Shown here in pieces: positions 22,666 through 59,988 of a stretch of DNA of 64,000 bases (its first letter is position 1; the number at the start of each line of letters is the position of its first letter). The notes below the pieces were generated by a model. That model searched no databases and had not been told where the DNA came from. It was given only the letters and a program-made list of their open reading frames with translations. The DNA comes from a virus. Location: positions 32,001-96,000 of IMG/VR virus record IMGVR_UViG_3300042898_006838. The stretch is one strand, 5' to 3'. The position numbers and the translations under genes were made by a program.

Positions 22666-22696
22666 CCGTTATACCTCGCAAGACTCTGGTTTTCAC
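22666..22696 (-). promoter_or_regulatory. Island promoter-like motif, copy 1 (GTGAAA-N17-TATAACGG)
   Basis: Matches the copies at 29737, 39304 and 59957; upstream of the HU gene. Confidence 0.6.
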
Positions 22697-22738
22697 GGCC
22701 TCAGAGCGCGTAGAATCACTACGACCAAGGAGCAGACT

Positions 22739-23446
22739 ATGAACCCGTTGCTGAAGACACTGCGAACCAAGACGGCGGGGGTCTGGGCTCTTCCGGCCGA
22801 GCGCCGATTCCCCATCGACACAGTTGACCTCGTCAAGACCGCGGCTGTCGCCTTCGAGGGCCAGCTGGAGAACATGGATCCGGCCCAGCGCCTGGTCTGT
22901 GCGCGTCGCGTCTGTGATCGTGCCGCTGAGCTGGGTGTACACGTCGAATCGTCCCTCGCCTACAAGTACGCCAGCGCCAATCTCAGCCCCTTCTTCGCTC
23001 AGTTCCTGGCTCTACGCAAGGAGGCCAGCTGCCACCTTGCTGACCGTGAGTTGGACATGCTGGCCGCCACGGCGGAGAAGCTGTCCTCGATCAAGGACGT
23101 TAACGCTCGCGTCGTCGGCCTCGACAAGGTGGCTGTGGCCCTTGAGAACTTTGACCGCGGTCACGGCCTTGAGGGGCACTGGGACAACTTCTTCCCAGAC
23201 CCGGCGTACAGCGTCTACGGACAGACCTTGGACCGCGGCGAGCGGATGGTCTTGGCCGTGAAGGTTGCCGGCCACGAGATCGACGGACAGATGCTGGAGT
23301 CGGCGGACTGGGAGGGGCTGAGAGGTCGCCTCGATGACTCAGTCATCGACGGCCTGCGTGATGCCGGCGCTGACCAACTCGCGGTCTTCGACAGCCTCCC
23401 GGCTCCGCACAAGGACATCATCGTCCAGGCCCTGGTGTCGGCATGA
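22739..23446 (+). CDS. Hypothetical head-cluster protein with KxA motifs
   Basis: AAGGAG RBS; TKTAG, VKTAA, RKEAS, VKVAG. Confidence 0.7.
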   Translation: MNPLLKTLRTKTAGVWALPAERRFPIDTVDLVKTAAVAFEGQLENMDPAQRLVCARRVCDRAAELGVHVESSLAYKYASANLSPFFAQFLALRKEASCHLADRELDMLAATAEKLSSIKDVNARVVGLDKVAVALENFDRGHGLEGHWDNFFPDPAYSVYGQTLDRGERMVLAVKVAGHEIDGQMLESADWEGLRGRLDDSVIDGLRDAGADQLAVFDSLPAPHKDIIVQALVSA

Positions 23447-24735
23447 GCGTGGTCAACGACGGTCACAAGGACAGCGGCGGCGGGTCAATGGCTGACGCCG
23501 TCTTCGAGGGAATGTGGAAGGGGGCCAGCCGGCCGTCACGAGCCGTCGTTGGCCCGCTTGCGGAGTGGGATGGCCAGGACCCGATCGTGACCAAAACTGC
23601 TCGTGTGCTCAGCGAGAACAGGAGCTTTGAGTCCACAGCCGGCCCCGGTGCCGCCCGCAATGCCAACAGCGGACCAGATCCGTCTGAGAGCTACAGCGCC
23701 ACGGTCGGAGCCACGGCTTCGGAGGCCAAGACTCCGCCGCCAGCGGACCAGAAGAAGCCTGTCGACAGCGGTCCGGCGAAGGGGGTCAAAGGCCCGGCTG
23801 CCTCTGGTCAGATTCAAGACGGCGGCCAGGGGCAGCGAAGCGATGTCTCGTCCAACGTCAAGTCGCGGCTGCAGTCGATGCTTCGCGTCAAGGAGACGGC
23901 ACCAATCCCCCGTGATCTCGTGCCCGCCGGGGCCATGGACAGCGACTACGAAAAGGTCGGATCAGCCCTGCCCGTGGAATGGCTTGAGCAGGCCGGAGAC
24001 GACGTCAGTGAACTGGCTGTCAACGAGCGATTGGCATATGCCGCTGTCCCAGGCGACGGTGGATGGCTGCGTGACGTCGCCGCCGATATCCTGGTCAAGG
24101 AGGCAAGCTCCGACGGCGAGTACCTGGTTCGCGATGACGTCCACCCGCTGAAGATCGTGGCCGTCCTCGACGACCTACTGGGCAGTGAGTGGCGGGAGTG
24201 GGAGCCGGAAACGATCAAGGCCTCACTGGCCAAGGAGGCGGGGACGGAGCCAGGCGACGGGGTTATGGACAAGATCATGGCCGTGAAGCTGGCGCTCTTC
24301 CGCCCCGAACTCTTCTACGGCCGGTGGCAAGCCTTCGAGAAGATGGCTGTGGCTTTCAACGACCGGCGCCCGGAGATGACGGACACCGAGCGGCTGAGTG
24401 CCGATGAGATGGCCAACGCCGTCGCCATCGCCCAGAAGCTGGCTGGCGAGGGGGACTTCACACCCGAGGTCGCCGCCTACGTCGCCACGCACCTCTTCGA
24501 CGAGGGCCTGGTCGTGGCGCCTCCGCAGCTGCTGTTTGCCGACGCCAAACTTGCAACCCTGGTCCGCGACCAGGGCCTGCGCCGCAAGGTCGTCCTGGCC
24601 TACGAGTCGGCGTTGAAGAACATGCCGTCGGACGAGAGCGAGGATCCAATTGAGATTCAGGCTCGCCGCATGGTGCGCACACACCTCTACGTCATGGACC
24701 GATTCGATCAGGGTCGAGAGCAGCTTGGATCATGA
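23443..24735 (+). CDS. Hypothetical head-cluster protein
   Basis: ATGA coupling; disordered N terminus, helical C-terminal domain after VKEAS. Confidence 0.7.
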   Translation: MSVVNDGHKDSGGGSMADAVFEGMWKGASRPSRAVVGPLAEWDGQDPIVTKTARVLSENRSFESTAGPGAARNANSGPDPSESYSATVGATASEAKTPPPADQKKPVDSGPAKGVKGPAASGQIQDGGQGQRSDVSSNVKSRLQSMLRVKETAPIPRDLVPAGAMDSDYEKVGSALPVEWLEQAGDDVSELAVNERLAYAAVPGDGGWLRDVAADILVKEASSDGEYLVRDDVHPLKIVAVLDDLLGSEWREWEPETIKASLAKEAGTEPGDGVMDKIMAVKLALFRPELFYGRWQAFEKMAVAFNDRRPEMTDTERLSADEMANAVAIAQKLAGEGDFTPEVAAYVATHLFDEGLVVAPPQLLFADAKLATLVRDQGLRRKVVLAYESALKNMPSDESEDPIEIQARRMVRTHLYVMDRFDQGREQLGS

Positions 24736-24995
24736 ACAGGTACCCGGCGCGGCAAGAACAGTGTGACCGAGAAGGCTGCCGTCCCGCGAGGCTGAGACCG
24801 GGAGCGACGGTGCGCGTGCAAGGAGTTGTCAACGGAGTCATCGGCCCGTTGGTCGAGGGACGCGTGTTGATCTCCAAGGCCAGCGATCTGGCCCCGGAAG
24901 TTGATGCGGTACTTGTGGCAACAAGAGAGTACGGTCGGCGTTGGTTTCACACCCGAGGCCACCCATTCCGAGTCGTTGAGGAGATCTGCGCATGA
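24732..24995 (+). CDS. Small hypothetical protein
   Basis: ATGA overlaps at both ends. Confidence 0.5.
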   Translation: MNRYPARQEQCDREGCRPARLRPGATVRVQGVVNGVIGPLVEGRVLISKASDLAPEVDAVLVATREYGRRWFHTRGHPFRVVEEICA

Positions 24996-27178
24996 CCAGC
25001 GAGAACGTGGCGCTTGAACGCCATACTTACGACGACCCGTTCCTGGACATGGCCTCGACGAAGCTGCCGAAGAGCTTCAAGAAGCTCATGGAGCTCTGCC
25101 AGATCTTCGCGCTCACGCACCCGCAGATCAGCCCCATCATCCAGCGCCTGGCCGAGTATCCGATCACCAGCCTCGTCTACAAAGGCGACCGTGAGAGTGA
25201 GCGTGTCCACAAGGACATCTTCGAGGTCAAGCTCCGGATCATGGAGAAGATGATCGAGTGGGGCCTGGACTACCACGCCTACGGAAACTGCTTCATCAGC
25301 ATCAGCTTCCCGTTCCTGCGCATGTACCGATGCCAGACCTGCAAGACCATCTACCAGAGCCGTGAGGTCAACTACCAGTACATCGGCGGCCGATTCCAGG
25401 GTCGATGCCGAAGCTGCGGCGGAGACCGAGAGTTCGATGCCATGGACCAGTACGTCAAGGACGCCAGCGGCATCAACCTCTTCCGCTTCGAGCCGCAGCT
25501 GATGACGCCGAAGTTCAACCGTGTCACCGGCCGCTACTTCTACTACTACGACATGCCTCCGGACCTGGTACGCAGCGTCGAGATCGGTGACAAGGACATC
25601 ATCGACAGCACGCCCGTCGAGTACCTGCGGTGCGTGAAGCTCAAGCGCAAGATGAAGCTCAAGCGCGTCTTCCACTTCAAGCGCCCGACACTCAGCGGCC
25701 GCGACATGCAGTGGGGTTTTCCGCTGGTGCTGCCAGCGCTGAAGGATGCCTACCTCAACCAGATCTACAAGAAGGCCGACGAGGCTATTGCCCTCGAACA
25801 CAGCGTGCCCCTGCGCGTGATCTTCCCGCAGCCGCAGACCAAAGACCCAATGCAGATGCTGGCGCTGGGCAACTTCAAGAACTTCATGGCCAAGAACATC
25901 AGGTACTGGCGCCAGGACAAGAACGCGATCATCACCGCGCCCATGCCCATCGGCAGCATGAACATCGGCGGCGACGCCCAGGCCTACAGCACCATCCAGG
26001 CGCGGGTGAAGGTCGTCGACGAGATCATCGGCGCGTGCATGGTCACCCGTGGCTTCGTGCTCGGCGGTGAGAACTGGTCAAGCGCCAGCATCAGCCAGCG
26101 GGTCATGGAGAACAGCTTCATGAACTACCTGCGTCGCATGGACGCCTGTCTGCAGTGGGTTCGTGACGAGGTTGGCGCGTACATGGGCCTGCCGCCGTGC
26201 GCCGTGTCGATGAAGCCATTCAAGAAGGTCGACGACGTGCAGATGCTGCAGCTGATAGTCGGCCTGGCCCAGCAGAAGCGTGTCAGCTGGCAGGAGACGC
26301 TTGGGCGACTGGACCTGGATAGCCGGGACGAGCTCGACGTCATCGAGAAGGAGGCCGTGCGCTACACCGAGCTCATGGTCCAGGAACTCATCGGCCAGAA
26401 CGAGGCCAGCTCCAAGGCTCTCGTGGCCCAGACCGTGGCCCAGGACCAGGCGGCTGGCGTTCAGGAGGTCCTGCAGGCCCAGGCCATGCGAGGTCAGGCC
26501 GTTGGTGCCGATGCCGCTGGGCAGATGAGCAAGGCCCAGTTCGAGGCTCAGCAGGCGGAGGTGGCAGCCAACACGCCGCCAGACCCGGCGTCGGCGGCAG
26601 CATCGGCTGAGGCCGAGAAGGACCAGGCCGTGGCCGAGAACTTCCGCGTCCGCAGTCAGCAGATGAGCGGGCAGCAGCCGGAGCAGCCGCAGGAGCAGAT
26701 GGTGGACGTGAACATGCAGCGTCAGATCCAGATGTGGGCCGGCGAGCTGCTGTCGATGTCCGGCGACGAGAAGCGTAAGCAGCTGCAGTACATGCACGAG
26801 CAGAACCCGGAGATCGCCCAGGCCGTGGTGGAGGTGGCCAGGGAGATGGAGCAGAGCGGTGGCGGTCAGCAGACCGCCGGTCCCGGTCCAGCTATCAGCA
26901 GGAGCCAGGACGCCAAGTCCATGACCGACGCCATCATGTCCCAGGTCAAGAGCCCAGATGAACTCGCTCAGCGCCTGTCCATGATCGATGCCCGGCAACA
27001 GTCAGCCGTGCTCCAGGAGATCCAACGCCGAAACCCTCAGCTCTTCATCAAGGTCATGCAGTTGATGAACGCCGAACGAGCCAAGGGGATGGAGTCCGGA
27101 GCCGGCCGTGGTAACGTGCCAGACAGCAAACCGCTTCCAGAACAGAAACCGCCGCAGCGCGAGGAGTCACCGGTATGA
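24992..27178 (+). CDS. Portal protein (putative) with a CxxC..CxxC insertion and a Gln-rich C-terminal extension
   Basis: DYHAYGNCFI, VFHFKRP, WGFPLV..AL are portal-like motifs; size and context fit. Confidence 0.75.
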   Translation: MTSENVALERHTYDDPFLDMASTKLPKSFKKLMELCQIFALTHPQISPIIQRLAEYPITSLVYKGDRESERVHKDIFEVKLRIMEKMIEWGLDYHAYGNCFISISFPFLRMYRCQTCKTIYQSREVNYQYIGGRFQGRCRSCGGDREFDAMDQYVKDASGINLFRFEPQLMTPKFNRVTGRYFYYYDMPPDLVRSVEIGDKDIIDSTPVEYLRCVKLKRKMKLKRVFHFKRPTLSGRDMQWGFPLVLPALKDAYLNQIYKKADEAIALEHSVPLRVIFPQPQTKDPMQMLALGNFKNFMAKNIRYWRQDKNAIITAPMPIGSMNIGGDAQAYSTIQARVKVVDEIIGACMVTRGFVLGGENWSSASISQRVMENSFMNYLRRMDACLQWVRDEVGAYMGLPPCAVSMKPFKKVDDVQMLQLIVGLAQQKRVSWQETLGRLDLDSRDELDVIEKEAVRYTELMVQELIGQNEASSKALVAQTVAQDQAAGVQEVLQAQAMRGQAVGADAAGQMSKAQFEAQQAEVAANTPPDPASAAASAEAEKDQAVAENFRVRSQQMSGQQPEQPQEQMVDVNMQRQIQMWAGELLSMSGDEKRKQLQYMHEQNPEIAQAVVEVAREMEQSGGGQQTAGPGPAISRSQDAKSMTDAIMSQVKSPDELAQRLSMIDARQQSAVLQEIQRRNPQLFIKVMQLMNAERAKGMESGAGRGNVPDSKPLPEQKPPQREESPV

Positions 27179-28506
27179 GCCAGGAAATTGACGACATGTT
27201 TTCGTCGGATCTCAAGGATCTGGCCAACCCGAGCCGCGTGAAGCTTGCTGAGGCCGAGAAGACAGCGCTCGTCGGCCCGCTGCTGGAACTCGGAAACCTC
27301 GGCATTCCCAGCGGCATCGGCTACGCCGTCGGCGCCAACAAGACGCCGGTAAGCAAGGACGAGGCCCGTCGTCAGCTCGACAGCGGATACAGCGTTGGCA
27401 AAGGTCTCCTCGTACCCGGCTACACCGGCTACCGCGCCGGCAAGAACAGCGCGGCCCGCGAGATGCTGCGCGCGGCCGAGAGCAAGAAGAAGAAGGGCAA
27501 GAAGGAAGCGGCTCTGAGCCCGGAGATGGCCTTCAACGCCGGCCGCGTGAAGGGCGCTCAGGACCCGAGCCGACCAGGCGCCGAGATGCCCGAGAACCTC
27601 AAAGCCGTCGAGCGCATGCGCCCGAACAAGCAGTCGCCGCTGACGGACAAGATCGAAGCCGCGAAGAAGCAGGCGAGCTGGCAGCAGCCTGCTGGACGTC
27701 GTGACACCTTGGGACGAGGAAGCCGAACCGGCGACCTCGGCAAAACCATCGGCAAGCTGATGAAGACGACGAGGAGCAAGGAGGCTTCGGCCGACGATCT
27801 CTTTGCCGCCGAGCTCTGCCAGGCCGTGGGCCTGGACGTGCCTGAGGCCTACGTCGACTTCCAGCGCCCGCAGGTCAAGATCGCGGGCAGTGCCAGCGAT
27901 GCCATCGACAACCACTTCCGCGGCTGGATGGAGAAGAAGGCCGGCGAGGATGTGGTCAAGGTCGCCAGCGATGACGAGGACAAGGACGAAGAGTCCGAGT
28001 GCTCCATGGACCACAGCAAGCTCAAGACCGGCACCAAGTGCAAGAAGTGCGGCGAGATGTGCAAGGAATCCTCGGTCAAGGAGGCCTTGAGCAGAGGGTT
28101 TATTGAAGCCATGCTCAAAGGCAAGAAAATCGTCGGCAAGGGAGGACGAACAGCTTCCCAGCGCCTGATGCGTGCCTCCGACAGAGGTCAAAGCGCCTTC
28201 AGCCGCAGAGTCGGCGCCGACGCCCCCAAGCGAATGACGAATTCAGCCCTTGAGCTGCAAAGTCAGGCTGACGGACAGCTCAACAACATCGGACGCGACA
28301 TCGCCGCCGGCACGTCGAAGACCTCCAGCGTCAAGACGGCGATGTGTGGCGCCGAACACAAGAAGCTCAAGCCCGGCGCCAAGTGCGAGAAGTGCGGCGA
28401 GATGGCGAAAACCGCCGGCATCATCGAGCACGACGAGAACCTGGACCTGCTGGCCAAGATCAGGGCCCGGGCCGCGCAGGGCCTGGGGCTGAACGGCGAT
28501 GGCTGA
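27175..28506 (+). CDS. KxA-punctuated putative internal-head polyprotein with two zinc-knuckle repeats
   Basis: EKTA, KKEAA, KKQAS, SKEAS, VKIAG, EKKAG, VKVAS, VKEA, VKTA, AKTAG; C-x3-H-x8-C-x2-C twice. Confidence 0.7.
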   Translation: MSQEIDDMFSSDLKDLANPSRVKLAEAEKTALVGPLLELGNLGIPSGIGYAVGANKTPVSKDEARRQLDSGYSVGKGLLVPGYTGYRAGKNSAAREMLRAAESKKKKGKKEAALSPEMAFNAGRVKGAQDPSRPGAEMPENLKAVERMRPNKQSPLTDKIEAAKKQASWQQPAGRRDTLGRGSRTGDLGKTIGKLMKTTRSKEASADDLFAAELCQAVGLDVPEAYVDFQRPQVKIAGSASDAIDNHFRGWMEKKAGEDVVKVASDDEDKDEESECSMDHSKLKTGTKCKKCGEMCKESSVKEALSRGFIEAMLKGKKIVGKGGRTASQRLMRASDRGQSAFSRRVGADAPKRMTNSALELQSQADGQLNNIGRDIAAGTSKTSSVKTAMCGAEHKKLKPGAKCEKCGEMAKTAGIIEHDENLDLLAKIRARAAQGLGLNGDG

Positions 28507-28711
28507 CACCTTCCACGTCCGCGTCTTCTGCCTCACGCACCCCAGCGACAGGCAGGACTTCGAGGAGATCAGGCAGGACGTGGAGGTCGACGGCGGTCGC
28601 CGGTTTCGTGTGCTCAAGGAGACCAGCTCCTGGACCCGCGACGGCGACCTGATGATGGCCCTGGAGTACGTGGAGCTCGACGACAAGGCCGTAGCCGAAG
28701 AACGCTACTGA
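28499..28711 (+). CDS. Small hypothetical protein
   Basis: Overlaps the upstream stop; typical codon usage. Confidence 0.65.
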   Translation: MADTFHVRVFCLTHPSDRQDFEEIRQDVEVDGGRRFRVLKETSSWTRDGDLMMALEYVELDDKAVAEERY

Positions 28712-28719
28712 CCTCGGCT

Positions 28720-28754
28720 AAAAAAAACGGGGACCCGGTGGTCGGGTCCCCGTT
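28720..28754 (-). terminator. Intrinsic terminator ending island 2
   Basis: AACGGGGACCCG-accac-CGGGTCCCCG followed by T8 on the minus strand. Confidence 0.85.
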
Positions 28755-28758
28755 GTCG

Positions 28759-28888: not shown

Positions 28889-29653
28889 TCAGCTCAGAGG
28901 CGGCGTCGCGCGCTTGGCCTGCTCGGACATGGCCTTGGCAATGGCCTCTGACATCATGCTGATCTGCTCCTCGCGGCTGTACTGGCCCTTGAGATCCTCA
29001 AGGGTTCCGACCACGCGGTCGACCATGAGGAGCTTGCTGCTGCCGCTGTCGTAGCCGCGCTTGCGCAGGTCGGCGAGGTCGCCGCGGGCGTGGAGCTCAC
29101 GCGACAGGTTCGCCTTCGCCTCCTTGCGCATGTCCTTCTCTGCTCGTCCGGCCAGGAACACGACCACAGCCTCGTAAGCCGCCAGGTACGCGCCAGCCGC
29201 CGTGGCCAACGCGTCCTTCTTGCCGCTGCCGACGATGTCCTCGGCGTCAGCGGTGGCCATGGCCGCGGTGATGAGCCCGGCCTCGCGCTGGGCCACGACC
29301 GACATCATCGCCGACCAGACGTCGTCAGGCAGCCCCTCGGGACCGGCGCGGCGCTTGCCGTCGACGATCTTGGCCTTGAAGTCGGCCGTCGCCCGGGCCA
29401 GCATCTCAGCGCCGTTCAGGTGGCGGTCGGCAAAGCTCAGGACCTCCTGCCGCATCTCCATCAGCTCCCCGGCGCGAGGGTGGCGGCCGACGAAGGTTTC
29501 GGGCTTGCTGGCCCGGACCTTGTCGACGGCGTCGACGCGGTACGACGGCATGGCGCCGTCGACGGCGCGGTCGAAACGGCGCTTGGCCTTGGACTTGGAA
29601 TCGGTACCGATGATTTTGGCGCCGACGTGCTTGATCTTCTTGAACATACCCAT
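28889..29653 (-). CDS. Hypothetical protein (island 2)
   Basis: AAGGAG RBS before MGMFKKIK; helical 254 aa. Confidence 0.75.
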   Translation of the reverse strand: MGMFKKIKHVGAKIIGTDSKSKAKRRFDRAVDGAMPSYRVDAVDKVRASKPETFVGRHPRAGELMEMRQEVLSFADRHLNGAEMLARATADFKAKIVDGKRRAGPEGLPDDVWSAMMSVVAQREAGLITAAMATADAEDIVGSGKKDALATAAGAYLAAYEAVVVFLAGRAEKDMRKEAKANLSRELHARGDLADLRKRGYDSGSSKLLMVDRVVGTLEDLKGQYSREEQISMMSEAIAKAMSEQAKRATPPLS

Positions 29654-29736
29654 GACTGACTCCTTGACAGGCCCTGGGGTGTTAACCCTGGGCGGTGGAT
29701 GAGAGTGAGAACAGACCACCTGTTTCTCTCTCACCT

Positions 29737-29768
29737 CTGTTATGCCCGTGTCCTGACGCGATTTTCAC
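29737..29768 (-). promoter_or_regulatory. Island promoter-like motif, copy 2 (GTGAAAATCGC-N7-CACGGGCATAACAG)
   Basis: Nearly identical to the copy at 59957-59988. Confidence 0.7.
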
Positions 29769-29785
29769 GATAGGATGAGGTCGAC

Positions 29786-37193: not shown

Positions 37194-38852
37194 ATGTGGA
37201 CCGACGAGGACGGGCGTGTGCACACCACGCCCAGCAACCTCGTGGCCAATCGCGTGAACATCAAGCCCGGCGTGCCATACAGCTTCGCCGACCGCCCGTT
37301 CATGACCCAGGTCTTCGACGACCCGTTCCCAGCCATCGGCTTGATGACGGCTCGGCAGATCAGCAAGTCCACGTTCCTGGCCGCTGATGCACTGGCAAGC
37401 TGTGAGGCCCTGTCGCCGTACACGGTCATGGTCCTGACTCCGAGCCAGGATCAGACGCGGAAGTTCAGCTACGACCGCCTGGGGCCCACGATTGCCAGTT
37501 CCCCGGCCGTGCGCTCGATGATGAGTGCCGAGAGCCTGGACAACGTCTTCGAGAAGAGCTTTGTCAACGGCAGCAAGATCTACCTCAGCTACGCCAAGGA
37601 GAACGCCGACCGCGTCCGCGGTATCAGCGCCGACCAGATCGACTACGACGAGATTCAGGACATGCACCTGAAGGCCGTCGAGGCCGTGACCAGGGAGTCT
37701 TTGTTCACCAGCCGCTACAAGCGCCGGCGCTACGGCGGCACGCCCAAGAGCTTCAGCAACGGCATCGAGCAGCGGGTCTGGAGGCAGAGCGACAGGCGCG
37801 AGTGGATGGTGCGCTGCCGTCACCACGCACCCATCTACCACCAGAAGCTGACGAAGAGGAACGTGGGCGTCAGCGGCCCGATCTGTGACCGCTGCGGCAA
37901 GAGCCTGTTCACGCTCGACGGCCTCTGGGTCTCGACGTCGTCGCTGACGCCAGACGGCAAGGTGCCGAGGATCCACGGCTACCACATCCCGCAGATCATC
38001 TTCCCGACCACTGACGTCGAGGTTGCCCCCGGCATCCGCGGATTCCTGGACTGGGGCTCGTTCAAGGACGAGATCGAGGACCCGAACACCGATGAGGCGA
38101 CAAAGCTCAACGAAAAGTGGGGTGAAAGCGCGGACAGCGAAGAGCGACCGGTGAAGGAGGACGAGCTCCGCGGCGCCTGCGTCGACGAGAGATCCATGCC
38201 ACAGGTCTGGCAGGAGTGGATGAAGGGCGAGTACTTGTTCGCGGGCCTGGACTGGGGAACGGGTCTGCAGTCGGCTACGGTCCTGACTATCGGCCAATTC
38301 GACCCCCGGGACCCGAAGATATTCCGCTACGTCTACGCCAAGCGCTACTTCGGGCGCGACGCCGACCCCAAGATCTGCGTTCCCGACATCCTGCGCAAGC
38401 TCCAGGACTTCCGAGTCTTCCGGGCCCACGCCGACTTCGGCAGCGGCCTGGGTCTGAACAGCCAGATCGAGGAGGCACGTGGCGAAGAGTTCCTGACCAC
38501 GAACTACTGGAGCAGCAGCATCGGCGGCAAGCGAGTGATCTACGACCCGGATCTCAGGCGCTACGTCCTGAACCGGAGCCTGCACATCACCCGCTTCTTC
38601 CAGGGACTGAAGAAGCGGAGCCTGCGCGTGGCCTTTGGCTGGCCAGACTTCCGCGTCTTCGCCGAGGACATCCTCCACGTCTTCCGCGAGGAGCGGAAGA
38701 ACGGCGACCCCTACTACGACCACAAGCCCGAGGAGCCGGACGACGCCATGCACGCCATGATCTACACCTGGCTCATCGCCAGCTTCCACCGCTACCGCAA
38801 CGAGGGCGTGGAGGTGGCGCGGACCACGCACGACCCGCAGTCCGGAGGCTAA
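37194..38852 (+). CDS. terL: Terminase large subunit
   Basis: ARQISKST Walker A, RGISAD..DYDE Walker B, GTPK motif, AGLDWG and PDDAMHA nuclease motifs. Confidence 0.9.
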   Translation: MWTDEDGRVHTTPSNLVANRVNIKPGVPYSFADRPFMTQVFDDPFPAIGLMTARQISKSTFLAADALASCEALSPYTVMVLTPSQDQTRKFSYDRLGPTIASSPAVRSMMSAESLDNVFEKSFVNGSKIYLSYAKENADRVRGISADQIDYDEIQDMHLKAVEAVTRESLFTSRYKRRRYGGTPKSFSNGIEQRVWRQSDRREWMVRCRHHAPIYHQKLTKRNVGVSGPICDRCGKSLFTLDGLWVSTSSLTPDGKVPRIHGYHIPQIIFPTTDVEVAPGIRGFLDWGSFKDEIEDPNTDEATKLNEKWGESADSEERPVKEDELRGACVDERSMPQVWQEWMKGEYLFAGLDWGTGLQSATVLTIGQFDPRDPKIFRYVYAKRYFGRDADPKICVPDILRKLQDFRVFRAHADFGSGLGLNSQIEEARGEEFLTTNYWSSSIGGKRVIYDPDLRRYVLNRSLHITRFFQGLKKRSLRVAFGWPDFRVFAEDILHVFREERKNGDPYYDHKPEEPDDAMHAMIYTWLIASFHRYRNEGVEVARTTHDPQSGG

Positions 38853-38880
38853 AAAAAACTCGACCCCTTTCGGGGCCGAG
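38851..38880 (-). terminator. Intrinsic terminator ending island 3
   Basis: CTCGGCCCC-GAAA-GGGGTCGAG followed by T8; the A-tract overlaps the terminase stop codon. Confidence 0.85.
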
Positions 38881-38892
38881 CTTTCTCGTCGT

Positions 38893-39201
38893 CTAGTTCA
38901 TGATCCAGCGCTGACCGTCAGCGCGGTTTTTTCCGCGTGAGAAAATGCCATCGACGTCGTCGATGCCCTGACCAGCTTCGTCGTCGATGAGGTCGAGGGA
39001 GAGGCGTTCAAGCGCCAGCTCTTCTGCACGGGTCCCGAAGAACCCTGCCCCTCTGGTTGCCCGGCAAGCCTTGCGTTTGCGGCCAGTGAGCCGGTCGACG
39101 TCTTCGTCGGCCAACTTCTCCGACCATGCGCACCTGCTGCAGAGGGCTCCCTTTTTGGGCGCCGATATGAGGCTGGTACAGCCTCTGCAGTTCACAGTCA
39201 T
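38893..39201 (-). CDS. Small zinc-finger (CxxC..CxxC) hypothetical protein
   Basis: CRGC...CSRC; lies between the motif and the terminator. Confidence 0.65.
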   Translation of the reverse strand: MTVNCRGCTSLISAPKKGALCSRCAWSEKLADEDVDRLTGRKRKACRATRGAGFFGTRAEELALERLSLDLIDDEAGQGIDDVDGIFSRGKNRADGQRWIMN

Positions 39202-39287
39202 GTCGCCTGTCTTGTCTCCGCTGACTTCAACTTGCTGACCACTTCCGTTTGCGGATTACCGGGTGTGGACGACGTCGACGAGATCAT
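39198..39287 (-). CDS. Possible 29-aa micro-ORF coupled to the zinc-finger gene
   Basis: GGAG RBS; ATG...ACA TGA overlaps the next ATG. Confidence 0.4.
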   Translation of the reverse strand: MISSTSSTPGNPQTEVVSKLKSAETRQAT

Positions 39288-39303: not shown

Positions 39304-39314
39304 CTGTTATGCCC
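39304..39314 (-). promoter_or_regulatory. Island promoter-like motif, copy 3 (GGGCATAACAG; upstream box degenerate)
   Basis: 11-nt identity to the downstream half of copies 2 and 4. Confidence 0.6.
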
Positions 39315-40796
39315 TCAGCCGCCACCGTATTCCGGGACCGCGGACATGAACTGCTTGTTCAGATCGCTCTTCTCCCGACGACGCTCGTCGATCCATTGGT
39401 CAGGGCTCATCGGCGGCTTGGTCCTGAAGACCTTGTTGACCAGGGACTTGTTGTGAGCGGTCATGTAGCGCCGGACCTCTACGTTCCTCTCGTCCTCGGG
39501 AAGGTGGGCGTGACTGCGGAATCTGGCACTGCGGCCCACGGCCTGGTTGCCGCGTTCCGGGTTCCAGTGCTCTTCGGTCAGCTGCACCATCCGCACGCCC
39601 TTGAGATCCAGGCCCTCGCCGCCGGCGGGACTGAGGCCGAGAACACGCAGGCGTCCGGCGTTGAAGTCAGCCACCATCTGCCGGCGCTGAGCGTCGTTGA
39701 GGCTGCCGGTGAAGGCCGCGGACGGGATCTTTCGCCTGTTGAGCTCGTCGATCAGCGGCTGGACTCCGCTCTCGATGAAGTTGCTGTAGATCACGGTCTT
39801 GAAGGCCTTGTTGCCCGCAGACTGGCTGACGATGTCGTCGAGCATGGCCTTGAACTTCGGAGACTCCATGGCCTTGGTGGTGTAGAGGCTGGGGTTGTTG
39901 CTGATCTGGCGAGCCGCGGCCATGAAGCTGTTCATGTTCTTCAGGTCCTTCTTGCTCGGCGGCAGGTTGTTCTTGAGCTTGTAGGCCAGGACCGGATTCT
40001 TCGAGCTCAGAGCCTTCATCATCTGCTCTTGGCCCGGTGACATGGGCACGGTCACCACCGACTCACTGACCGTCGGAAGCTCTCGCTGGTAGGCCTCGTT
40101 TCCCGAGAAGCGGTGGACGACTGGCGACAGCTTGGCGCCAAGCCCGGCCTTGTTCTTCAGGCTCTCTTCGACTCCAGGCTTAACGCCACTGAGCCGTCCC
40201 CAGAGACTGACTGGTATCTGCTTCTCGTCGATGTGCTGGCGCTTGAAGTCCTCGATGCTCTCGAACACGGGCTTGCCGGCAGCCAGGTTCACCAGCGGCA
40301 CGATCTCCTCGGGCCGGTTGTTTATCATGCTGCCGGTGAGGCCGAGCATGAACTTCACCTTGCCGCGCACTTTGTCGAAGGCTTCGCGGGGCCCGGGGTT
40401 GCGTAGACGGTGGAACTCGTCGGCGATGATCGTCGTAGGCCGAGCCCGAGCAACCCAGCCCTCGGGATCGCGGCGAAACTCGTCGTAGCTGATGACCGTG
40501 TACGCGCCATGTCGCAGCGGGCTCACGTGATCTCGCAGCTGGCCCTGGAAGTTCTCACGCAATGCCGCCGGCGTCACGACCAGGACGTTGCCGCCCTTGG
40601 CCTCGGCGACGGCGATGGAGCCCAGGGTCTTGCCGCTACCCAGTCCCCAGTTCAGGACCATGCCCGATGACGTCGCCGAACGCGCCACGGCATCGGCCTG
40701 GTGCGGCTGCAGCTTGACGCTCGGGTTCAGGGCCGCGGTCTTGGTCAGCGCCGCCCGTGCTCGTGACGTGAACTCAGCAGCTGTCTTCGACGTCAT
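39315..40796 (-). CDS. SNF2-family (SF2) helicase/ATPase with a KTA-KTA N-terminal leader
   Basis: GLGSGKT, ADEFH, LTGS, GGEGLDL, WNP...QAVGRSAR. Confidence 0.9.
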   Translation of the reverse strand: MTSKTAAEFTSRARAALTKTAALNPSVKLQPHQADAVARSATSSGMVLNWGLGSGKTLGSIAVAEAKGGNVLVVTPAALRENFQGQLRDHVSPLRHGAYTVISYDEFRRDPEGWVARARPTTIIADEFHRLRNPGPREAFDKVRGKVKFMLGLTGSMINNRPEEIVPLVNLAAGKPVFESIEDFKRQHIDEKQIPVSLWGRLSGVKPGVEESLKNKAGLGAKLSPVVHRFSGNEAYQRELPTVSESVVTVPMSPGQEQMMKALSSKNPVLAYKLKNNLPPSKKDLKNMNSFMAAARQISNNPSLYTTKAMESPKFKAMLDDIVSQSAGNKAFKTVIYSNFIESGVQPLIDELNRRKIPSAAFTGSLNDAQRRQMVADFNAGRLRVLGLSPAGGEGLDLKGVRMVQLTEEHWNPERGNQAVGRSARFRSHAHLPEDERNVEVRRYMTAHNKSLVNKVFRTKPPMSPDQWIDERRREKSDLNKQFMSAVPEYGGG

Positions 40797-54098: not shown

Positions 54099-54706
54099 TG
54101 TCAGTGAGAGACGACGTACTCGCCAAGAGTCGAGAACATATGGAAAAGGAGGCGAATGTCTTCGCCAACGCCTTGAACCGTGCGGGATCACTCGTCGGGC
54201 GAGGCGTCGCCTCTGTCGCTGGCAAGGGTGGTCAGCTTCTCTCCAACCCCAGCTCTCGCCTCGGCCAGCTTGCTGACCGAGTCAGCACGTCAGCTGCCGG
54301 GCAGGGGGCTGCCAGCCGCGCGGCTCTGGCGAAGAGAGTCGAAGATCGAGCTCAAACCGCGGCTCAGAGCCGGGTGATGAAGAAGATGACGCCGGCCGAG
54401 CGCGTCAGCGTCCGGCAAGACCAGTCGGCGTCGCGGGCAGCGGCCAAGGCCAAGGCCAACGCGCCGATGCCGCAGTCCGCTGCTCCTGTCGGCGTGTCCC
54501 AGGCACCGGCTCAAGCCCAGGCCGCCGGTGGTCAGGTTGTTCCCATCCGTCCGGGCATGGGCTTGGGCAAGAAGGTCATGATCGGTGGCGGGCTTCTGGC
54601 TGGCGGCTCGATGATTGGCGGTGCCGTCGGCGCCGGCAAGCAGAGCGTTCAGCAGCAGATGGCCAGCGGCCAGATCGTGCCCGGAAACTACGAACAGCAG
54701 GGATGA
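54098..54706 (+). CDS. Basic Ala/Gly-rich protein with an EKEA leader and a C-terminal glycine-zipper-like helix
   Basis: TGATG coupling; IGGGLLAGGSMIGGAVGAG. Confidence 0.7.
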   Translation: MSVRDDVLAKSREHMEKEANVFANALNRAGSLVGRGVASVAGKGGQLLSNPSSRLGQLADRVSTSAAGQGAASRAALAKRVEDRAQTAAQSRVMKKMTPAERVSVRQDQSASRAAAKAKANAPMPQSAAPVGVSQAPAQAQAAGGQVVPIRPGMGLGKKVMIGGGLLAGGSMIGGAVGAGKQSVQQQMASGQIVPGNYEQQG

Positions 54707-55545
54707 CTGGTCGAATCTTCATCCACACGCTCTCACTACCAGAGCGAATTTGGGTGGACTTTTTCCGGGTCTTTTTTAGCCAGAGGTATCTCCTGGTTGA
54801 CGAGGACATGCGCCCCGTCGAGAACCAGTTCTTGATCGAGCAGTCCCTGGAGCCGGGGAACAGACGCTTCGATGTCCTCTTCGAGAGCGACATGGAAAAA
54901 GCGAATCCAAACATCCTGCCCTGCCTCGTCATCGAGGACACGGGTACGGCTCAGACTGGAATCCTTCTCAACGAGCTTAGGACCTGGGCTGTGAAACCAG
55001 CGTCTATGCGTGACCGCACGGACTTGCTGCGCAGCACCTACGTCTTTCACTGCTGCAGTCGTCACCGAGGAGAAAGCCGTCTGCTGGCTTCTATTGTCAG
55101 CGCGGCCGTTACCTCGTTCAGAGACGCGTTGCTTGAAGCTGGTCTGCACAAGATCGATCCATGGTCCATTGGAAAGACCATGGCTCTCAAGGCAGACAAC
55201 GACGAGGTTTACGTCGACACGCCTGTGACGGTGAACTTCAGTTTCCAGGAGCGATGGAAGACCATCGAGAACAGCGACAGCTTCTACGAGCATTACTGCC
55301 TGGCTATCGCCGCCGACCAGCTGGTACGCTACGTGCGCACGGCCATGGCTGTGAGCGATTCCTTCCTGATTCCCTACGTGAAGACGACAATGGACATCGA
55401 GAACATCAACATCAACAACTACGTGATGAGCTCGATGTCTCTGTCAGATCCGACCTCGTCGTCGTTCTTCATTAACAGCCGCGTCGACGTCGTCGATGCT
55501 GACAATGTCACGAAATACCTGAGGACGTCGATGCGCGTGTCTTGA
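54703..55545 (+). CDS. Tail terminator / completion protein (putative) with C-terminal YVRTxM repeats
   Basis: Directly before the sheath gene; LPCLVI and YVFHCCS..ES..LA pattern. Confidence 0.6.
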   Translation: MTGRIFIHTLSLPERIWVDFFRVFFSQRYLLVDEDMRPVENQFLIEQSLEPGNRRFDVLFESDMEKANPNILPCLVIEDTGTAQTGILLNELRTWAVKPASMRDRTDLLRSTYVFHCCSRHRGESRLLASIVSAAVTSFRDALLEAGLHKIDPWSIGKTMALKADNDEVYVDTPVTVNFSFQERWKTIENSDSFYEHYCLAIAADQLVRYVRTAMAVSDSFLIPYVKTTMDIENININNYVMSSMSLSDPTSSSFFINSRVDVVDADNVTKYLRTSMRVS

Positions 55546-55589
55546 GATAGCTCAAGTCCGCGACTAGACTCCCACACGCGAGGTGCGCC

Positions 55590-58500
55590 ATGGCCTATGA
55601 AGAACCAGGGATCAAAGTCATTCAGCAGCTGTCACAGGCTGCTGCAAACATCGCCGCGGCGACGCAGGCTGCGACGCTGGTTGGCGAGCTCTACGAGGTC
55701 TTCAGTGACCGAGTGCTGACCAGGCGCTATGACGCGTTGACCGGCGCCGGAAGCCAGGCTTTCACCTGGCCAGGGAAGAAGACGACGTCTGTCGTCGATC
55801 TCGCTGGCGTCCGCAAGGACACGGCTGAGCCCGACAGCCAGCTCGACGAATACGCCGTATTCCCACTGGCGTTCAAACTCCGTGACCCGATCACGAGCCA
55901 GATCTTTTCCATCGACAAAATCTCCGGTGTCTTCGGCGTAAGCCAGACCGGGTTTTCGCTGGCCGAGAAGGTGGACGCCGCCGGCGCCCGTCTCTCCGGT
56001 GCCGTGGGAACTGGCGCCCAGGCCAACCGCCTTCACTCCCGCCTCGGCGGCGCGGTGAACGCCGGCGTCAGCGTCGGTGACCGCGTGCGCGTGACCAACG
56101 CGCCGACCTTGCCCATCTTCGACATCCGCGGCAAGGTCACGGCCTTCGCCGACGACGACGTCACGTTCCAGGGCGACGGCACCCAGTTCAAGGTCAACGC
56201 CTCGACCGCCGCCGGCTCGGCGACGTTCGTGGCCACGGTCACGGACAAGGCCGTCACGCTCCCGGCCACCGGCGTCATCCGCGTCGACAGCGGCGGCAAG
56301 ACCGAGGATCTGGCCTACGGCAGCGTCTCCGTCGCCGGCCTCGTCCACACCTTCACGCTCGCGGGCGCCACGCTCACGCGCCTGCAGCATGACGCGCAGG
56401 TCGACGTCAAACTCCTGGTCCGCAATACCGTGAACATGGCGTTGACCGACGGCAACATCGTCGCCTCCAGCGGTCACGTCGCGTCGGCTGCCGGCGGACT
56501 GACCGGTCGCCTGAACCAGCGCATCGCAATCTGGCCCGAGAACCTGTGGGTCAACACCGGATCCGTTGCCGGCGGCGGATTCCGAGTCAACACCAGTGAC
56601 CTGACGCTGACGGAAGCCCATGTTGGACGCCTGGCCACGGTGTGGACCGACACTTCCGGCGTAACCTTCGCCACCGGCGCCAGTGTCGGCGGCGTCTCGG
56701 TCCTGGAGTTTGAGGACACGACCAACAGCCCGTTCCTGGCTGCTCACGTCGGACTCGTCATCAAGATCGGCAGCGAATACCGCCGCGTCACCAGTGTCGT
56801 CTCGGCTTCGAAGATCACGTACAGCGGCGCCAAGATCACCAACGCCGCCGGCATCACATTCTTCCTGTACGTGACGCCAGTCGTGTGCACGATCACGGCC
56901 GTCGACGTCGCCGGCGGTGGCAGTGACTTCTTCGTGGACACGGCTGTCTCGGCTGTGGCCGGTGCTCTGCCGGTGGTTATCCACCGACCCGAGTACCGCG
57001 ACGTCACCAGCGTCGTCACCGACTTTGACGTCGTGTACAGCGGCAGCGCCATCGTCCCGGACACGACCTTCGGCCGCTTCACGCCCGTGTCTCTCTTCAC
57101 CGAGAGCATGACGTTTGAGGTCATGCCAGACTTCGAGTTGCTGACCAGCTTCCGCGCCCTGGACATCGCGGCCGTAAACGACACGCTCGCCGTGTCGACG
57201 ATCAGCGAGGTTCAGAGCCTGGGAGCCGTCCACAAGGCCAACCCCTTACTCTGGGCCGCCAACTCCGCCTTGCTGGCTATGGGCACCACCGACGTGCCCG
57301 TGCTCCTGCAGTCCGTCGACCTGTTCAGCGACGCGCTGAGCGGATCAAAGTCCGGGTTCCCCGAGGACCGGCAGGAGGCGCTTGGCTACGGCCTGGCGCT
57401 TGAAATCCTGTCAAGCCAGGATAGCCCGTACTTCCTGGTGCCACTGACCAGGGACGAGAGTGTGCGCTCGGCATTCCGTGGTCACGTCCTGGCACAGAGC
57501 CAGCCGACGGCGAAGCATGAGCGCGTGGTCTACCAGACCTACGACCTCCCGCTCGGAGACGTCGAGAGCGTCGAGGGCCTGATCGCCCCCGGCTTCAACG
57601 GCGGCAACAAGCGCATCACCGACATCGGCGCCGGCTTCATCTCCACCCACGGCCTGATCCCCGGCAACGCCGTCGTGATCCAGAAGCCTGCGGCCTTCGC
57701 CGGCAGCTACGTCATCGCCGCGGGCAGCGACGACGACAACCTGGTCCTCGAAGGCACGCCCTGGCAGCAGGATGGCGCCGGCTCGTTCCTGTCCGCGGCC
57801 AAGGAGTTCTCGGTTGCCAACGCTGACACCACGGTCACAAACGTCGTCGACTCGGCGACCAGCGGCGTGTGGAAGGACGTGCAGCCCGGCGACTACCTGC
57901 TGCTCGGCAGCCAGACGCGTCTGATCACGGCCGTCAGCAACTTCGCCCCGGGCACCAACAACCGCCTGGCCTACAGCGGTTCGGCGCTGACGCCGGCGGC
58001 GGCGTCGCAGAGCGTCTCGATCCTGCGCACCAGCGTCGGAGTCGAGTTCTACGCCAAGCCCATGGACAAGACCGAGCAGGCGGCGGCCATCGCCGCCATC
58101 AGCCAGGGTCTCGGCAGCCGTCGCTACGTCAACTTCTGGCCCGACTCCGTCGAGCAGATCACGGGCACTGACACGCAGGGTAACGAAGTCAAGGAGCTGG
58201 TCCCCAGCTTCTACGCCGCGGCGGCCGAGGCCGGTCGTGACAGCGTTATCCCCAGCGCCCGTAGCTCCACCGGCATGTCGCTGGCCGGTTTCACGGGCCT
58301 CGACCACAGCAACCGCTACTTCTCGACGGCTCAGCTGAACGTCATCGCCGGCGGCGGCTGGTCGATCCTGGAGCAGAAGGTCGTCGGAGGTCCGGTGACG
58401 ATGCGGCACCTGTTGACCACGGACATGTCCACGGTCAAGAGCCAGGAGCTCAGCTTCACGAAGAACGTCGACAACATGGCCAAGGTCAAGCGCGCGAGCA

Positions 58501-58754
58501 CTGAGCCCTTGCTCAACGACGACAGCGGCCGAGTGAACATCACCCAGGACCTGCTGACGTCGCTGGCCTTCCCGTTCCAAGGCATCTACGAGAGCTTCGT
58601 TCGCACCGGTCAGCTGGTGCGCACGAGTGGCAAGCCGGCGTACAAGATCCTGTCCATCCGACAGGACCCGCTGAACGCCGACTGCATCCTCGAAGACGTC
58701 GAGCTCAACGTGCCCCTGCCCGCCAACCGTGTCGTGGTGACGTTCGTCATCTGA
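55590..58754 (+). CDS. Contractile tail sheath protein with large inserted domains
   Basis: N-terminal YEEPGIKV; C-terminal QLNVIAGGG...MRHLLTTD...ELSF...PLPANRVVVTF. Confidence 0.85.
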   Translation: MAYEEPGIKVIQQLSQAAANIAAATQAATLVGELYEVFSDRVLTRRYDALTGAGSQAFTWPGKKTTSVVDLAGVRKDTAEPDSQLDEYAVFPLAFKLRDPITSQIFSIDKISGVFGVSQTGFSLAEKVDAAGARLSGAVGTGAQANRLHSRLGGAVNAGVSVGDRVRVTNAPTLPIFDIRGKVTAFADDDVTFQGDGTQFKVNASTAAGSATFVATVTDKAVTLPATGVIRVDSGGKTEDLAYGSVSVAGLVHTFTLAGATLTRLQHDAQVDVKLLVRNTVNMALTDGNIVASSGHVASAAGGLTGRLNQRIAIWPENLWVNTGSVAGGGFRVNTSDLTLTEAHVGRLATVWTDTSGVTFATGASVGGVSVLEFEDTTNSPFLAAHVGLVIKIGSEYRRVTSVVSASKITYSGAKITNAAGITFFLYVTPVVCTITAVDVAGGGSDFFVDTAVSAVAGALPVVIHRPEYRDVTSVVTDFDVVYSGSAIVPDTTFGRFTPVSLFTESMTFEVMPDFELLTSFRALDIAAVNDTLAVSTISEVQSLGAVHKANPLLWAANSALLAMGTTDVPVLLQSVDLFSDALSGSKSGFPEDRQEALGYGLALEILSSQDSPYFLVPLTRDESVRSAFRGHVLAQSQPTAKHERVVYQTYDLPLGDVESVEGLIAPGFNGGNKRITDIGAGFISTHGLIPGNAVVIQKPAAFAGSYVIAAGSDDDNLVLEGTPWQQDGAGSFLSAAKEFSVANADTTVTNVVDSATSGVWKDVQPGDYLLLGSQTRLITAVSNFAPGTNNRLAYSGSALTPAAASQSVSILRTSVGVEFYAKPMDKTEQAAAIAAISQGLGSRRYVNFWPDSVEQITGTDTQGNEVKELVPSFYAAAAEAGRDSVIPSARSSTGMSLAGFTGLDHSNRYFSTAQLNVIAGGGWSILEQKVVGGPVTMRHLLTTDMSTVKSQELSFTKNVDNMAKVKRASTEPLLNDDSGRVNITQDLLTSLAFPFQGIYESFVRTGQLVRTSGKPAYKILSIRQDPLNADCILEDVELNVPLPANRVVVTFVI

Positions 58755-58772
58755 TCAGAGGAGGAACTGACC

Positions 58773-59444
58773 ATGCCCGTTCAAAAGAAATACGCAGCCA
58801 GCACCCTGAGCAACTGGAATTTCCGTCAGTTCCACCTGAACGTGGATCGAGGCGGAAAGAACCAGGGCCAGTTCATGACCCCGGAGGCGACGCTCATCGC
58901 CGCCGGCCCTGCTCGCCTTGAGGACCTGAGTGGTGCGGCGTTGGAGAAGCTCGTCATCCCCATCGCCATCACCGACAACGTGTCCGTGAACCAGAACAAG
59001 ATGCTGCAGCAGATCTTCGAGATCGGCAGCCGCCGCAGCTACTTCGTCAGCGGCCACACCACCGGCACCGTGGCTCTGGCGCGGCCGATGTTCAACGGCC
59101 CGAGCCTGATGCGCGTCCTCACCGGCGCGACCCAGGACACCGAGGGCTTGGACAACGACGCGGGCATGGACGTCATCAGCGGCGGCGACCCAGCCGGCCG
59201 GCAGTTCAACGACGAGACCGAGGCCACGTTCTACATCAACCTGCAGGCCGAGATCTTCGATCGGCCGACGGGGTTGATGGTGTACATGATCGACCAGCGG
59301 AACGTGCCCTACGGCGCGTTCTACATCGAGGACTGCAACATCAACGCTCACGGCTTCGGCGTCGCCAGCCAGGCCATGACCGTGGTCGAGAACGTGAGCA
59401 TGATGTTCGACCGCGTGGTGCCCGTGGCCGTCACCGCCGGCTAA
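58773..59444 (+). CDS. Tail tube protein
   Basis: GAGGAG RBS; QIFEIGS, YIEDCNI, VENVSM tube motifs; follows the sheath gene. Confidence 0.85.
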   Translation: MPVQKKYAASTLSNWNFRQFHLNVDRGGKNQGQFMTPEATLIAAGPARLEDLSGAALEKLVIPIAITDNVSVNQNKMLQQIFEIGSRRSYFVSGHTTGTVALARPMFNGPSLMRVLTGATQDTEGLDNDAGMDVISGGDPAGRQFNDETEATFYINLQAEIFDRPTGLMVYMIDQRNVPYGAFYIEDCNINAHGFGVASQAMTVVENVSMMFDRVVPVAVTAG

Positions 59445-59500
59445 AAAAAACCGCTGTCGGTTTTTTCGCAGACAAAGCCGCCGTGACTGGCGGCTTTGTC
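59443..59500. terminator. Convergent terminator region with two hairpins
   Basis: A8-CCG-ctgt-CGG-T6 and GACAAAGCCGCC-gtgact-GGCGGCTTTGTC. Confidence 0.75.
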
Positions 59501-59503
59501 GTG

Positions 59504-59941
59504 TCAGTACCAGCCGGAGCGGTTGCTGGCGCGCCGGGCCGCGCGAGCCTCGGCCTCTTCGTCCTCGCGGCGAGCGCTGTCCAGATCATCCGCCATCCGC
59601 TGCCTGTGCTTGGGCAGCTGCCAGCACTCCTTGCAGACGACCAGAGCTTTGTCGCCCTGGGCGGCGTAGAAGTCGTACCACTCCCATTCCCAAGTCTCGC
59701 TGCGCGGCTTGGTCGTGGAGCAATCTCGACAGACTACCTTCTCCTCACCCTCCGACCGCCGGTGCTGTTCAGCACACGAGGCGCACATGGCGCACCCGTC
59801 TCCGTCGAGCTCGCTGCGGCAGAAGCTGTCTACTTCGATCCGCGCGATCACCAGCGGTTCGTGGCCGCAGGTGCCAACGGTCCCACGAGCGACGAGGGCT
59901 TCGATGTCCTTCTTATAAGTCTTCGTGACGAACCAGTTCAT
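59504..59941 (-). CDS. Cys-rich (multiple CxxC) hypothetical protein (island 4)
   Basis: GGAGGTG RBS; CGH, CASC, CRDC, CKEC. Confidence 0.75.
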   Translation of the reverse strand: MNWFVTKTYKKDIEALVARGTVGTCGHEPLVIARIEVDSFCRSELDGDGCAMCASCAEQHRRSEGEEKVVCRDCSTTKPRSETWEWEWYDFYAAQGDKALVVCKECWQLPKHRQRMADDLDSARREDEEAEARAARRASNRSGWY

Positions 59942-59956
59942 ATCTCACCTCCACGA

Positions 59957-59988
59957 CTGTTATGCCCGTGGAGGCGAGCGATCTTCAC
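59957..59988 (-). promoter_or_regulatory. Island promoter-like motif, copy 4 (GTGAAGATCGC-N7-CACGGGCATAACAG)
   Basis: Nearly identical to copy 2. Confidence 0.7.

Follow-up and report, generated by a model that had tools for sequence, protein, structure and literature searches.

A candidate lineage-private bipartite promoter in a phage that encodes a single-chain RNA polymerase and a diverged sigma factor

The question raised by the 64,000-nucleotide (nt) window analysed here (positions 32001-96000 of the IMG/VR phage record IMGVR_UViG_3300042898_006838; 155,932 bp, 96% complete, ~62% G+C) is whether a short element that heads four groups of minus-strand genes is a promoter and, if so, which polymerase and which specificity factor read it. 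A first-pass annotation, made from the letters of the window alone, had quoted four such strings on the minus strand and had proposed a phage-specific promoter. All four strings are present, and the proposal is supported: the element is bipartite, gene-oriented, intergenic, terminator-bounded and conserved, and both a diverged sigma factor and sister motifs in other phages have been found. Judged by its sequence, the motif is a genuine bipartite promoter, private to the phage and conserved in its lineage, at which transcription would start, with the consensus G-R-A-A-W-W, 13 nt, GGGCATAAC, 5 nt, Y-G. No promoter consensus for this lineage was found in the literature searched.

Copy number over the whole genome, compared with per-strand expectations from Markov models of order 1-4, shows a strong excess on one strand: the minus strand has 10 copies of GGCATAAC against 0.5-1.5 expected, the plus strand one against 0.3-0.55. 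The motif discovery that the first-pass annotation had proposed as a check, carried out as an unbiased search for enriched 8-mers in the 60 nt before the start codons of crude, self-trained gene calls (181 genes, 93% coding), returned GGCATAAC as the top word once Shine-Dalgarno (SD) words were set aside. A weight matrix (columns -21..+8) scanned over the whole genome and compared with shuffles gave 12 sites of 16-32 bits, 11 on the minus strand and one on the plus strand (Table 1); the next-best match, at 12.2 bits, falls inside the shuffle range, and this gap makes the motif class sharply bounded at 12. The window holds only four of these sites.

All 12 sites face the next gene and 10 lie in gaps between the gene calls; of the other two, one is in the final codons of a possible 79-amino acid (aa) open reading frame (ORF) and one lies under a plus-strand ORF judged to be a false call. 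The heads of strand blocks are occupied by five sites (genome 54675, 61746, 135090, 131189 and 138110), all but the last of these in divergent gaps; the block-head gaps are as short as 74 nt, and a promoter must lie in them. At 8 of the 12 sites core and ATG are 15-20 nt apart and an SD lies in the interval; leaders of ~48-85 nt are found at two other sites, and at two more the ATG comes 3-6 nt past the core. At five sites the core begins 1-9 nt past an upstream stop codon. The units themselves are laid out as promoter, a few genes, terminator, and an intergenic GC-rich hairpin with a T-run closes 10 of the 12 within 0.5-4.3 kb. Their products are non-structural, as had been claimed for the window: an HU-like protein, a ParB-like nuclease with a dCTP-deaminase-like protein, a DnaQ-like exonuclease with a DUF445 protein, a DUF3846 protein, a retron-type reverse transcriptase in one operon with a VWA-like protein, and small unknown ORFs.

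Counted from the first G of the core, the GAAAAT-like upstream box occupies -20..-15, and its six columns carry 4.9 bits against a null maximum of 3.2 (2 x 2000 draws). A significant second box 13 nt upstream of the core fits the sigma-like spacing of the first-pass annotation. Its GTGAAA and CACGG strings fared less well as general elements, the box being G-R-A-A-W-W, with GTGAAA at two sites only, and the site at 39313, which it had listed with no upstream box, has one (GGAATA). Downstream-base statistics were taken over 24 sites (12 own and 12 in relatives), and the Y-G there is the predicted -1/+1, with a predicted start 7 nt past the final C of the core: the predicted -1 is Y in 20 and the predicted +1 is G in 19 of the 24, and a Y-R step stands at the predicted start of 9 of the 12 own sites against ~3 expected.

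Read as a hexamer, CATAAC has C as its final base at all 12 own and all 12 relatives' sites, and C as its first base in 23/24. The -10 box ending in C, which had been remarked on as odd, is therefore invariant in that respect, but the oddity is likely an artefact of the sigma-70 register. In a sigma-28 register the core would read GGGCATAA at -15..-8 with the C at -7, and the upstream box would fall at -34..-29, over TAAA, with A at -32 and at -31 in 21/24 sites each. Several other promoter classes were considered and rejected. A group-1 sigma-70 -10 element (TATAAT, with near-invariant A-11 and T-7) is ruled out by the invariant final C, and a TTGACA -35 with a 17±1 spacer by the G-R-A-A-W-W box; matches to an E. 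coli-type sigma-70 consensus are rarer in the genome than in shuffles (15 vs 22-47). Inspection by eye excluded sigma-54 (TGGCAC-N5-TTGC), there being no TTGC downstream; the ECF-sigma pattern (GGAAC ... CGTC) mismatches; and a T7-like single-subunit promoter is excluded by the absence of a polymerase of that kind and by the shortness of the motif.

Conservation could be followed at two orthologous sites of the window, P29746, which is divergent from the RNA polymerase (RNAP) gene, and P22675, at the HU-like gene (Table 1). Nine distinct loci were recovered, through RNAP (L001, L002/3, L004, L005) or through HU-like homologs (L018-L022), with identities of 59-74% in RNAP and 56-74% in the HU-like protein. 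The P29746 ortholog is kept in L001, L002/3, L004, L005, L018, L019 and L020; in the gap between RNAP and its divergent neighbour an A-run, ~13 nt and GGCATAACA are always kept and the remainder is unalignable. Before the HU-like gene, GAAAACCAG, 11-12 nt and the full GGCATAAC are found in L001, L002/3, L019, L020, L021 and L022, and L018 has a degenerate copy. Core and A-rich box kept amid diverged gaps are a phylogenetic footprint of both boxes. Other queries gave less: GenBank phages yielded no Megablast match to the RNAP region, no relatives turned up when IMG/VR was scanned with the exonuclease and with the ParB-like protein, and the 145-aa product of the P59966 unit, used as query for homologs, retrieved only itself.

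Two candidate trans-acting factors are encoded by the phage. The single-chain beta-beta' RNAP has all its beta domains followed by all its beta' domains, and lies with the large terminase gene (37194-38852; phrog_675, 4e-44) in one plus-strand operon; it is 29.9% identical to the RNAP of Vibrio phages D181/D148/D69 and 31.4% to that of Salmonella phage Arash. The single-chain RNAP product of relative L018 (L018:1-3725, minus strand) is 2930 aa with LAGLIDADG and Hom_end matches, which suggests that an intein or homing endonuclease is inserted in the polymerase, and the D181 RNAP match is likewise split by a homing endonuclease.

The second factor is a 229-aa sigma homolog encoded at genome 29633-30322 on the minus strand (L017:1279-1968), 1.7 kb to the left of the window and for that reason invisible to the first-pass annotation. 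It was found only with Arash gp10 as query (E 1.8e-13, 27% identity), and its gene lies directly downstream of a >470-aa M23-peptidase gene, an order that matches Arash gp8 (hydrolase)-gp10. There are 47 other homologs, on metagenome contigs of up to 169 kb, most of which carry Sigma70_r3 and are labelled sigma by JGI. A profile of 26 homologs (residues 5-224) gives a full-length match to solved sigma factors (8x6g_H, 7.4e-7; 1l0o_C, 1.6e-5) and ~1e-5 against regions 2-3 of SigA/RpoD. By profile, then, the protein falls within the sigma-70 family; its single-sequence Pfam matches are sub-threshold. Searched in six frames with the Pfam models Sigma70_r2, r4 and r4_2, the genome gave no match; these are false negatives, the sigma having diverged too far. 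By these profile comparisons the 229-aa protein is a diverged, group-3-like sigma of the sigma-70 family. Membership of FliA/WhiG was rejected: the protein reaches 18.7 bits on TIGR02479, where the cut-off is 189.6. The models on which the Arash ortholog scores best are those of FliA/WhiG (NF005809: 45 bits, cut-off 326).

The promoter itself invites comparison with two group-3 classes. In the sigma-28 open complex at P. aeruginosa fliC the two elements are (-36)TCTAAAG(-30) and (-15)GCCGATAA(-8) (PMC12784957). The phage motif has the same box spacing, its GGGCATAA shares G-15 and ATAA at -11..-8 (5/8 positions), its A-rich box at -34..-29 lies over TAAA, the -35 motif that sigma-28 promoters have ~15 nt before their -10 element, and Y-G stands at the predicted -1/+1. 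It differs in having GGC rather than CCG at -14..-12, G rather than T at -34 and an extra invariant C at -7, and the likely core enzyme is the phage single-chain RNAP. For SigB the consensus is GTTTAA-N15±2-GGGTAT (PMC9847131). Here the likeness to SigB/SigF lies in the phage -10 GGG(C/T)AT, with AGGTAT at the HU-like site, in a 13-nt spacer within the reported range, and in the group-3 size of the sigma profile's best structure matches (8x6g_H, 1l0o_C); the differences are a GAAAAT-like rather than GTTT -35 and an invariant AAC past GGGCAT that is not in the SigB consensus. The promoter thus appears to resemble group-3 sigma promoters and to be a member of neither the sigma-28 nor the SigB class, because positions -14..-12 and the -35 box differ and the sigma lies far below the family cut-offs.

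Sister motifs were found by the same unbiased upstream-word search in two cultured distant relatives with different hosts (records OQ632216.1 for Arash and OZ196140.1 for D181), in both of which they precede non-structural genes. In Arash (53% G+C, Salmonella) the top upstream word is GGTATAAG, with 30 minus-strand and one plus-strand copies against 2.1 expected, mostly 25-35 nt before minus-strand non-structural genes; positions -19..-14 hold a CAATAA-like box, and T-G is conserved 6-7 nt past the motif. Vibrio phage D181 (45% G+C) encodes a homolog of the sigma (3.7e-23). Its genome shows no enrichment of the exact pattern GGYATAAS, and de novo search then gave GTTATAAG as the top upstream word (17 minus, 1 plus); by eye, and unscored, the listed sites have a TCAATAA/TTAAACA-like upstream box. 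The core grammar shared by the three phages is G-K-Y-ATAA-S, with -7 never T in any of them. Besides homologous RNAPs (~30% identity) and sigmas, Arash and D181 share with the present phage a sigma gene that adjoins a cell-wall hydrolase gene; Arash differs in having beta and beta' as separate genes (gp206, gp216), where here there is one 2019-aa chain, and in having 30-40 copies of the motif against 12. Since the sister motifs occur in phages of differing hosts, recognition is probably phage-encoded; three hosts, three G+C contents and one grammar are the strongest argument for this.

The account that we regard, with moderate confidence, as the likely one is a lineage-private bipartite promoter read by the phage sigma together with the single-chain RNAP, delivered in the virion and firing first. 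The reader would most likely be the phage-encoded 229-aa group-3-type factor, probably working with the beta-beta' chain; we infer both that this sigma reads the motif and that it pairs with this RNAP. Sigma and RNAP would probably be packed in the virion and injected, by analogy with Arash, and the 12 promoters would then fire first and independently of host sigma. Mass spectrometry of Arash virions identified RNAP beta (the most abundant by spectra), beta', the sigma Gp10 and a helicase, in a study of virion proteomics that does not mention promoters (PMC10585845). Virion delivery and early timing in the present phage would follow from these data, from the position of both the sigma and the RNAP genes among virion and packaging genes, and from the non-structural content of the units; the first-pass suggestions that the promoter is early and is read by the fused RNAP would likewise draw on gene content and the Arash virion proteomics.

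Among known systems, phage N4 injects a virion RNAP that reads private early promoters and leaves the structural genes to another polymerase; the N4 enzyme is single-subunit and T7-like, uses hairpin promoters and has no sigma. For jumbo phages, a review (PMC7598289) describes the early promoters of the virion RNAP as conserved motifs of ~10 nt that precede early operons and have their centre near -10. The conserved 9-nt core found here upstream of non-structural units resembles such a motif. The present phage differs in that the RNAPs of jumbo phages (phiKZ, AR9) come in four or five polypeptides with no sigma-70 homolog, where here there are one chain and a sigma, and in that their motifs are AT-rich single boxes, where the promoter described here is bipartite and half G+C.

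The alternative that survives best has the phage sigma redirecting the core RNAP of the host, the single-chain RNAP then serving another class of genes. Phage sigmas that appropriate the host core are a textbook case (SPO1 gp28, T4 gp55), the 229-aa protein is recognisably of the sigma-70 family, and its pairing with the phage RNAP is itself only inferred. We nevertheless consider this unlikely: homologs of both sigma and RNAP are present in the three of three complete genomes checked (the present phage, Arash and D181), the abundance of both proteins in Arash virions makes sense for a pre-assembled holoenzyme, and the core is alike across hosts of very different G+C content and phylogeny.

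Improbable, in turn, is recognition of the motif by the single-chain RNAP alone or with a non-sigma factor, in the manner of jumbo-phage virion RNAPs at their early promoters, the sigma serving other promoters. The resemblance of the 9-nt invariant core to the ~10-nt early motifs near -10 of jumbo phages (PMC7598289) speaks for it. A two-domain sigma is better suited by the significant upstream box at sigma-region-4 distance and by the sigma-28-like geometry, and here too the sigma homolog in each of the three complete genomes tells against the proposal.

A borrowed regulon signal, read by host RNAP with a host alternative sigma of SigB/SigF or FliA/WhiG type, is less probable still. It would account for the resemblance of the core to GGGTAT (SigB) and GCCGATAA; the phage, however, has a group-3-like sigma of its own, its -35 box is A-rich and not GTTT, and near-identical cores are found in Salmonella and Vibrio phages, whose hosts have the FliA consensus GCCGATAA and not GGTATAAG or GTTATAAG. 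Least probable of all is a role at the RNA level instead of as a promoter, in which the motif would mark a site of processing or signal translation at a set distance ahead of start codons. This would suit the regular spacing to SD and ATG and the cores lying close behind stop codons, but not the five block-head sites, four of them in divergent gaps with no same-strand upstream transcript to process, nor the conserved box (13 nt upstream of the core) and Y-G (6-7 nt downstream), which suit DNA recognition, nor the variable distance to the ATG, seen in the leaders of 48 to 85 nt at two sites.

Several observations weigh against recognition of the promoter by an injected phage holoenzyme, or limit its reach. 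The phage sigma is below every curated family cut-off (best 18-19 bits), with Pfam regions 2 and 4 not found in six-frame searches. The Arash and D181 motifs differ from the present core at two and three of 9 positions, respectively, so that recognition shared with these phages is no better than plausible. At the HU-like gene the conserved ATG is 3-4 nt past the core, where the modal predicted start would remove it; an ATG so near the core of P22675 would need an atypical start or a leaderless message. The 12 units span only ~25 kb of 156 kb and other promoter classes must therefore exist. A more distant relative, G002 (RNAP 45% identical), shows in its 64-kb fragment neither GGCATAAC above control nor a clear substitute or enriched upstream motif; no sigma was found in that fragment either, and the result is uninformative rather than negative.

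Finally, at genome site 108006 a strong terminator hairpin stands between core and SD. It lies 25-55 nt past the core (genome 107951-108006, minus strand), before an operon of 488 aa - 124 aa - RVT_1 - 498 aa - VWA-like, and looks like an attenuator or the terminator of the upstream operon sited past the next promoter.

A broader proposal, which we offer tentatively and with some doubt, is that a single promoter grammar, independent of the host, is common to phages with a bacterial-type RNAP and a Gp10-like sigma, with Arash and D181 at one end of the range and uncultured high-GC phages with a single-chain RNAP at the other. The grammar would consist of an A-rich box near -33, of G-K-Y-ATAA-S at -15..-7 and of a Y-G start, and a virion-injected holoenzyme would read it, the structural genes being left to a second class of TAnnnT type. 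Phage-private promoters with a phage sigma or RNAP are already known as a kind; the present lineage is hardly studied and combines a cellular-type RNAP, here fused to one chain, with its own group-3-like sigma. If the proposal is true, such phages would possess a bacterial-type transcription system that is portable and complete in itself, and host sigma and host core would both be bypassed from the first minute of infection. A sigma/RNAP pair that works on so compact a promoter would be a minimal orthogonal bacterial-type transcription system, and would show how recognition of promoters by sigma drifts (GCCGATAA to GGTATAAG to GGGCATAAC) at fixed geometry. The motif provides a testable cis-element with a +1 predicted to the single base and a candidate trans-factor, and Arash is a cultured system for the sister motif.

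Candidates for a second promoter class lie on the opposite strand. TAGAAT (22711-22716, plus) and TAGGAT (29771-29776, plus) are back-to-back with minus-strand promoters at the heads of two plus-strand structural operons; both are -10-like, of TAGRRT / TAnnnT type, and a similar CTAGACT is at window position 55564. Relatives keep TAGCGT, TAGGCT, TACGCT, TAGGAT or TAGTAT just 5-13 nt upstream of the RNAP start codon, an arrangement suggestive of a near-leaderless RNAP message and of a further promoter class that may be of host type. In Arash and D181 a second word, CTAAAAT(A)TAG, is mostly on the structural (plus) strand and sometimes abuts the first word in divergent gaps. The TAGRRT-like elements of the window mirror these CTAAAAT(A) words and are candidates for the other promoters. 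A second enriched upstream motif was also sought in the phage's own genome (AAGAAATC, AATCAA, GAAGGGA), and nothing coherent was found.

The four promoters of the window and the terminators of their units are listed in Table 1. P29746 is predicted to drive a 254-aa gene (28889-29653) with a leader of ~80 nt. Its relatives have ~85-nt leaders (L001:9870-9945, L018:3775-3857, L019:2642-2725, L020:3512-3599) with a conserved stretch before a 250-270-aa gene, consisting in these four of GCGCACAGAA-AACC, a CCCTGG/CCAGGG-type hairpin and GAAAATCGATGC; the leader of the window itself (29654-29731) has diverged. The predicted start of P59966 is the first G of the SD GGAGG, before a 145-aa gene (59504-59941, phrog_8344). 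The core of P39313 begins 1 nt past the stop of a SNF2 helicase gene (39315-40796); downstream are a 29-aa ORF (39198-39287, minus strand) and, with an ATGA overlap, a 102-aa gene (38893-39201), and the two may be translationally coupled. The gene that P22675 faces encodes the HU-like DNA-binding protein (22245-22664) and has its ATG just 3 nt past the core; this unit stops at its terminator ahead of large virion genes.

Table 1. Promoter sites, terminators and RNA polymerase gene; positions are those of the window unless the genome is named
Feature	Position	Strand	Details
Minus-strand sites, genome	144066, 138110, 135090, 128097, 121587, 117095, 108006, 91966, 71313, 61746, 54675	-	weight-matrix scan
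Plus-strand site, genome	131189	+	weight-matrix scan
P29746	29732..29766	-	box GAAAAT 29761-29766; core GGGCATAAC 29739-29747; predicted start G 29732; 32.2 bits, best site
P59966	59952..59986	-	box GAAGAT 59981-59986; core GGGCATAAC 59959-59967; predicted start G 59952; 28.0 bits
P39313	39299..39333	-	box GGAATA 39328-39333; core GGGCATAAC 39306-39314; predicted start G 39299; 26.5 bits
P22675	22661..22695	-	box TGAAAA 22690-22695; core variant AGGTATAAC 22668-22676; 16.0 bits, weakest site
Intrinsic terminator, HU-like unit (~2.5 kb)	20201..20233	-	GC-rich hairpin + T8, intergenic
Intrinsic terminator, P29746 unit	28718..28754	-	bidirectional hairpin, convergent gap
Intrinsic terminator, P39313 unit	38848..38883	-	
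Intrinsic terminator, P59966 single-gene unit	59469..59494	-	
Single-chain beta-beta' RNA polymerase, 2019 aa	29786..35845	+	Rpb2_6 1e-53, Rpb1_2 3e-31, others

Other repeated words occur in the genome. The 8-mers AGGCCCTG (36 vs 16) and GGGCATGG (27 vs 11) are strand-biased over the whole genome at 5-6x the order-2 expectation, and may be codon or peptide repeats. Two copies of GTTCGTGACCAA(G/C) lie in the 395-nt gap (genome 130850-131244) 5' of the ParB-like gene and a third in the gap at ~143262-143340; this word could serve as an operator or resemble parS in function.

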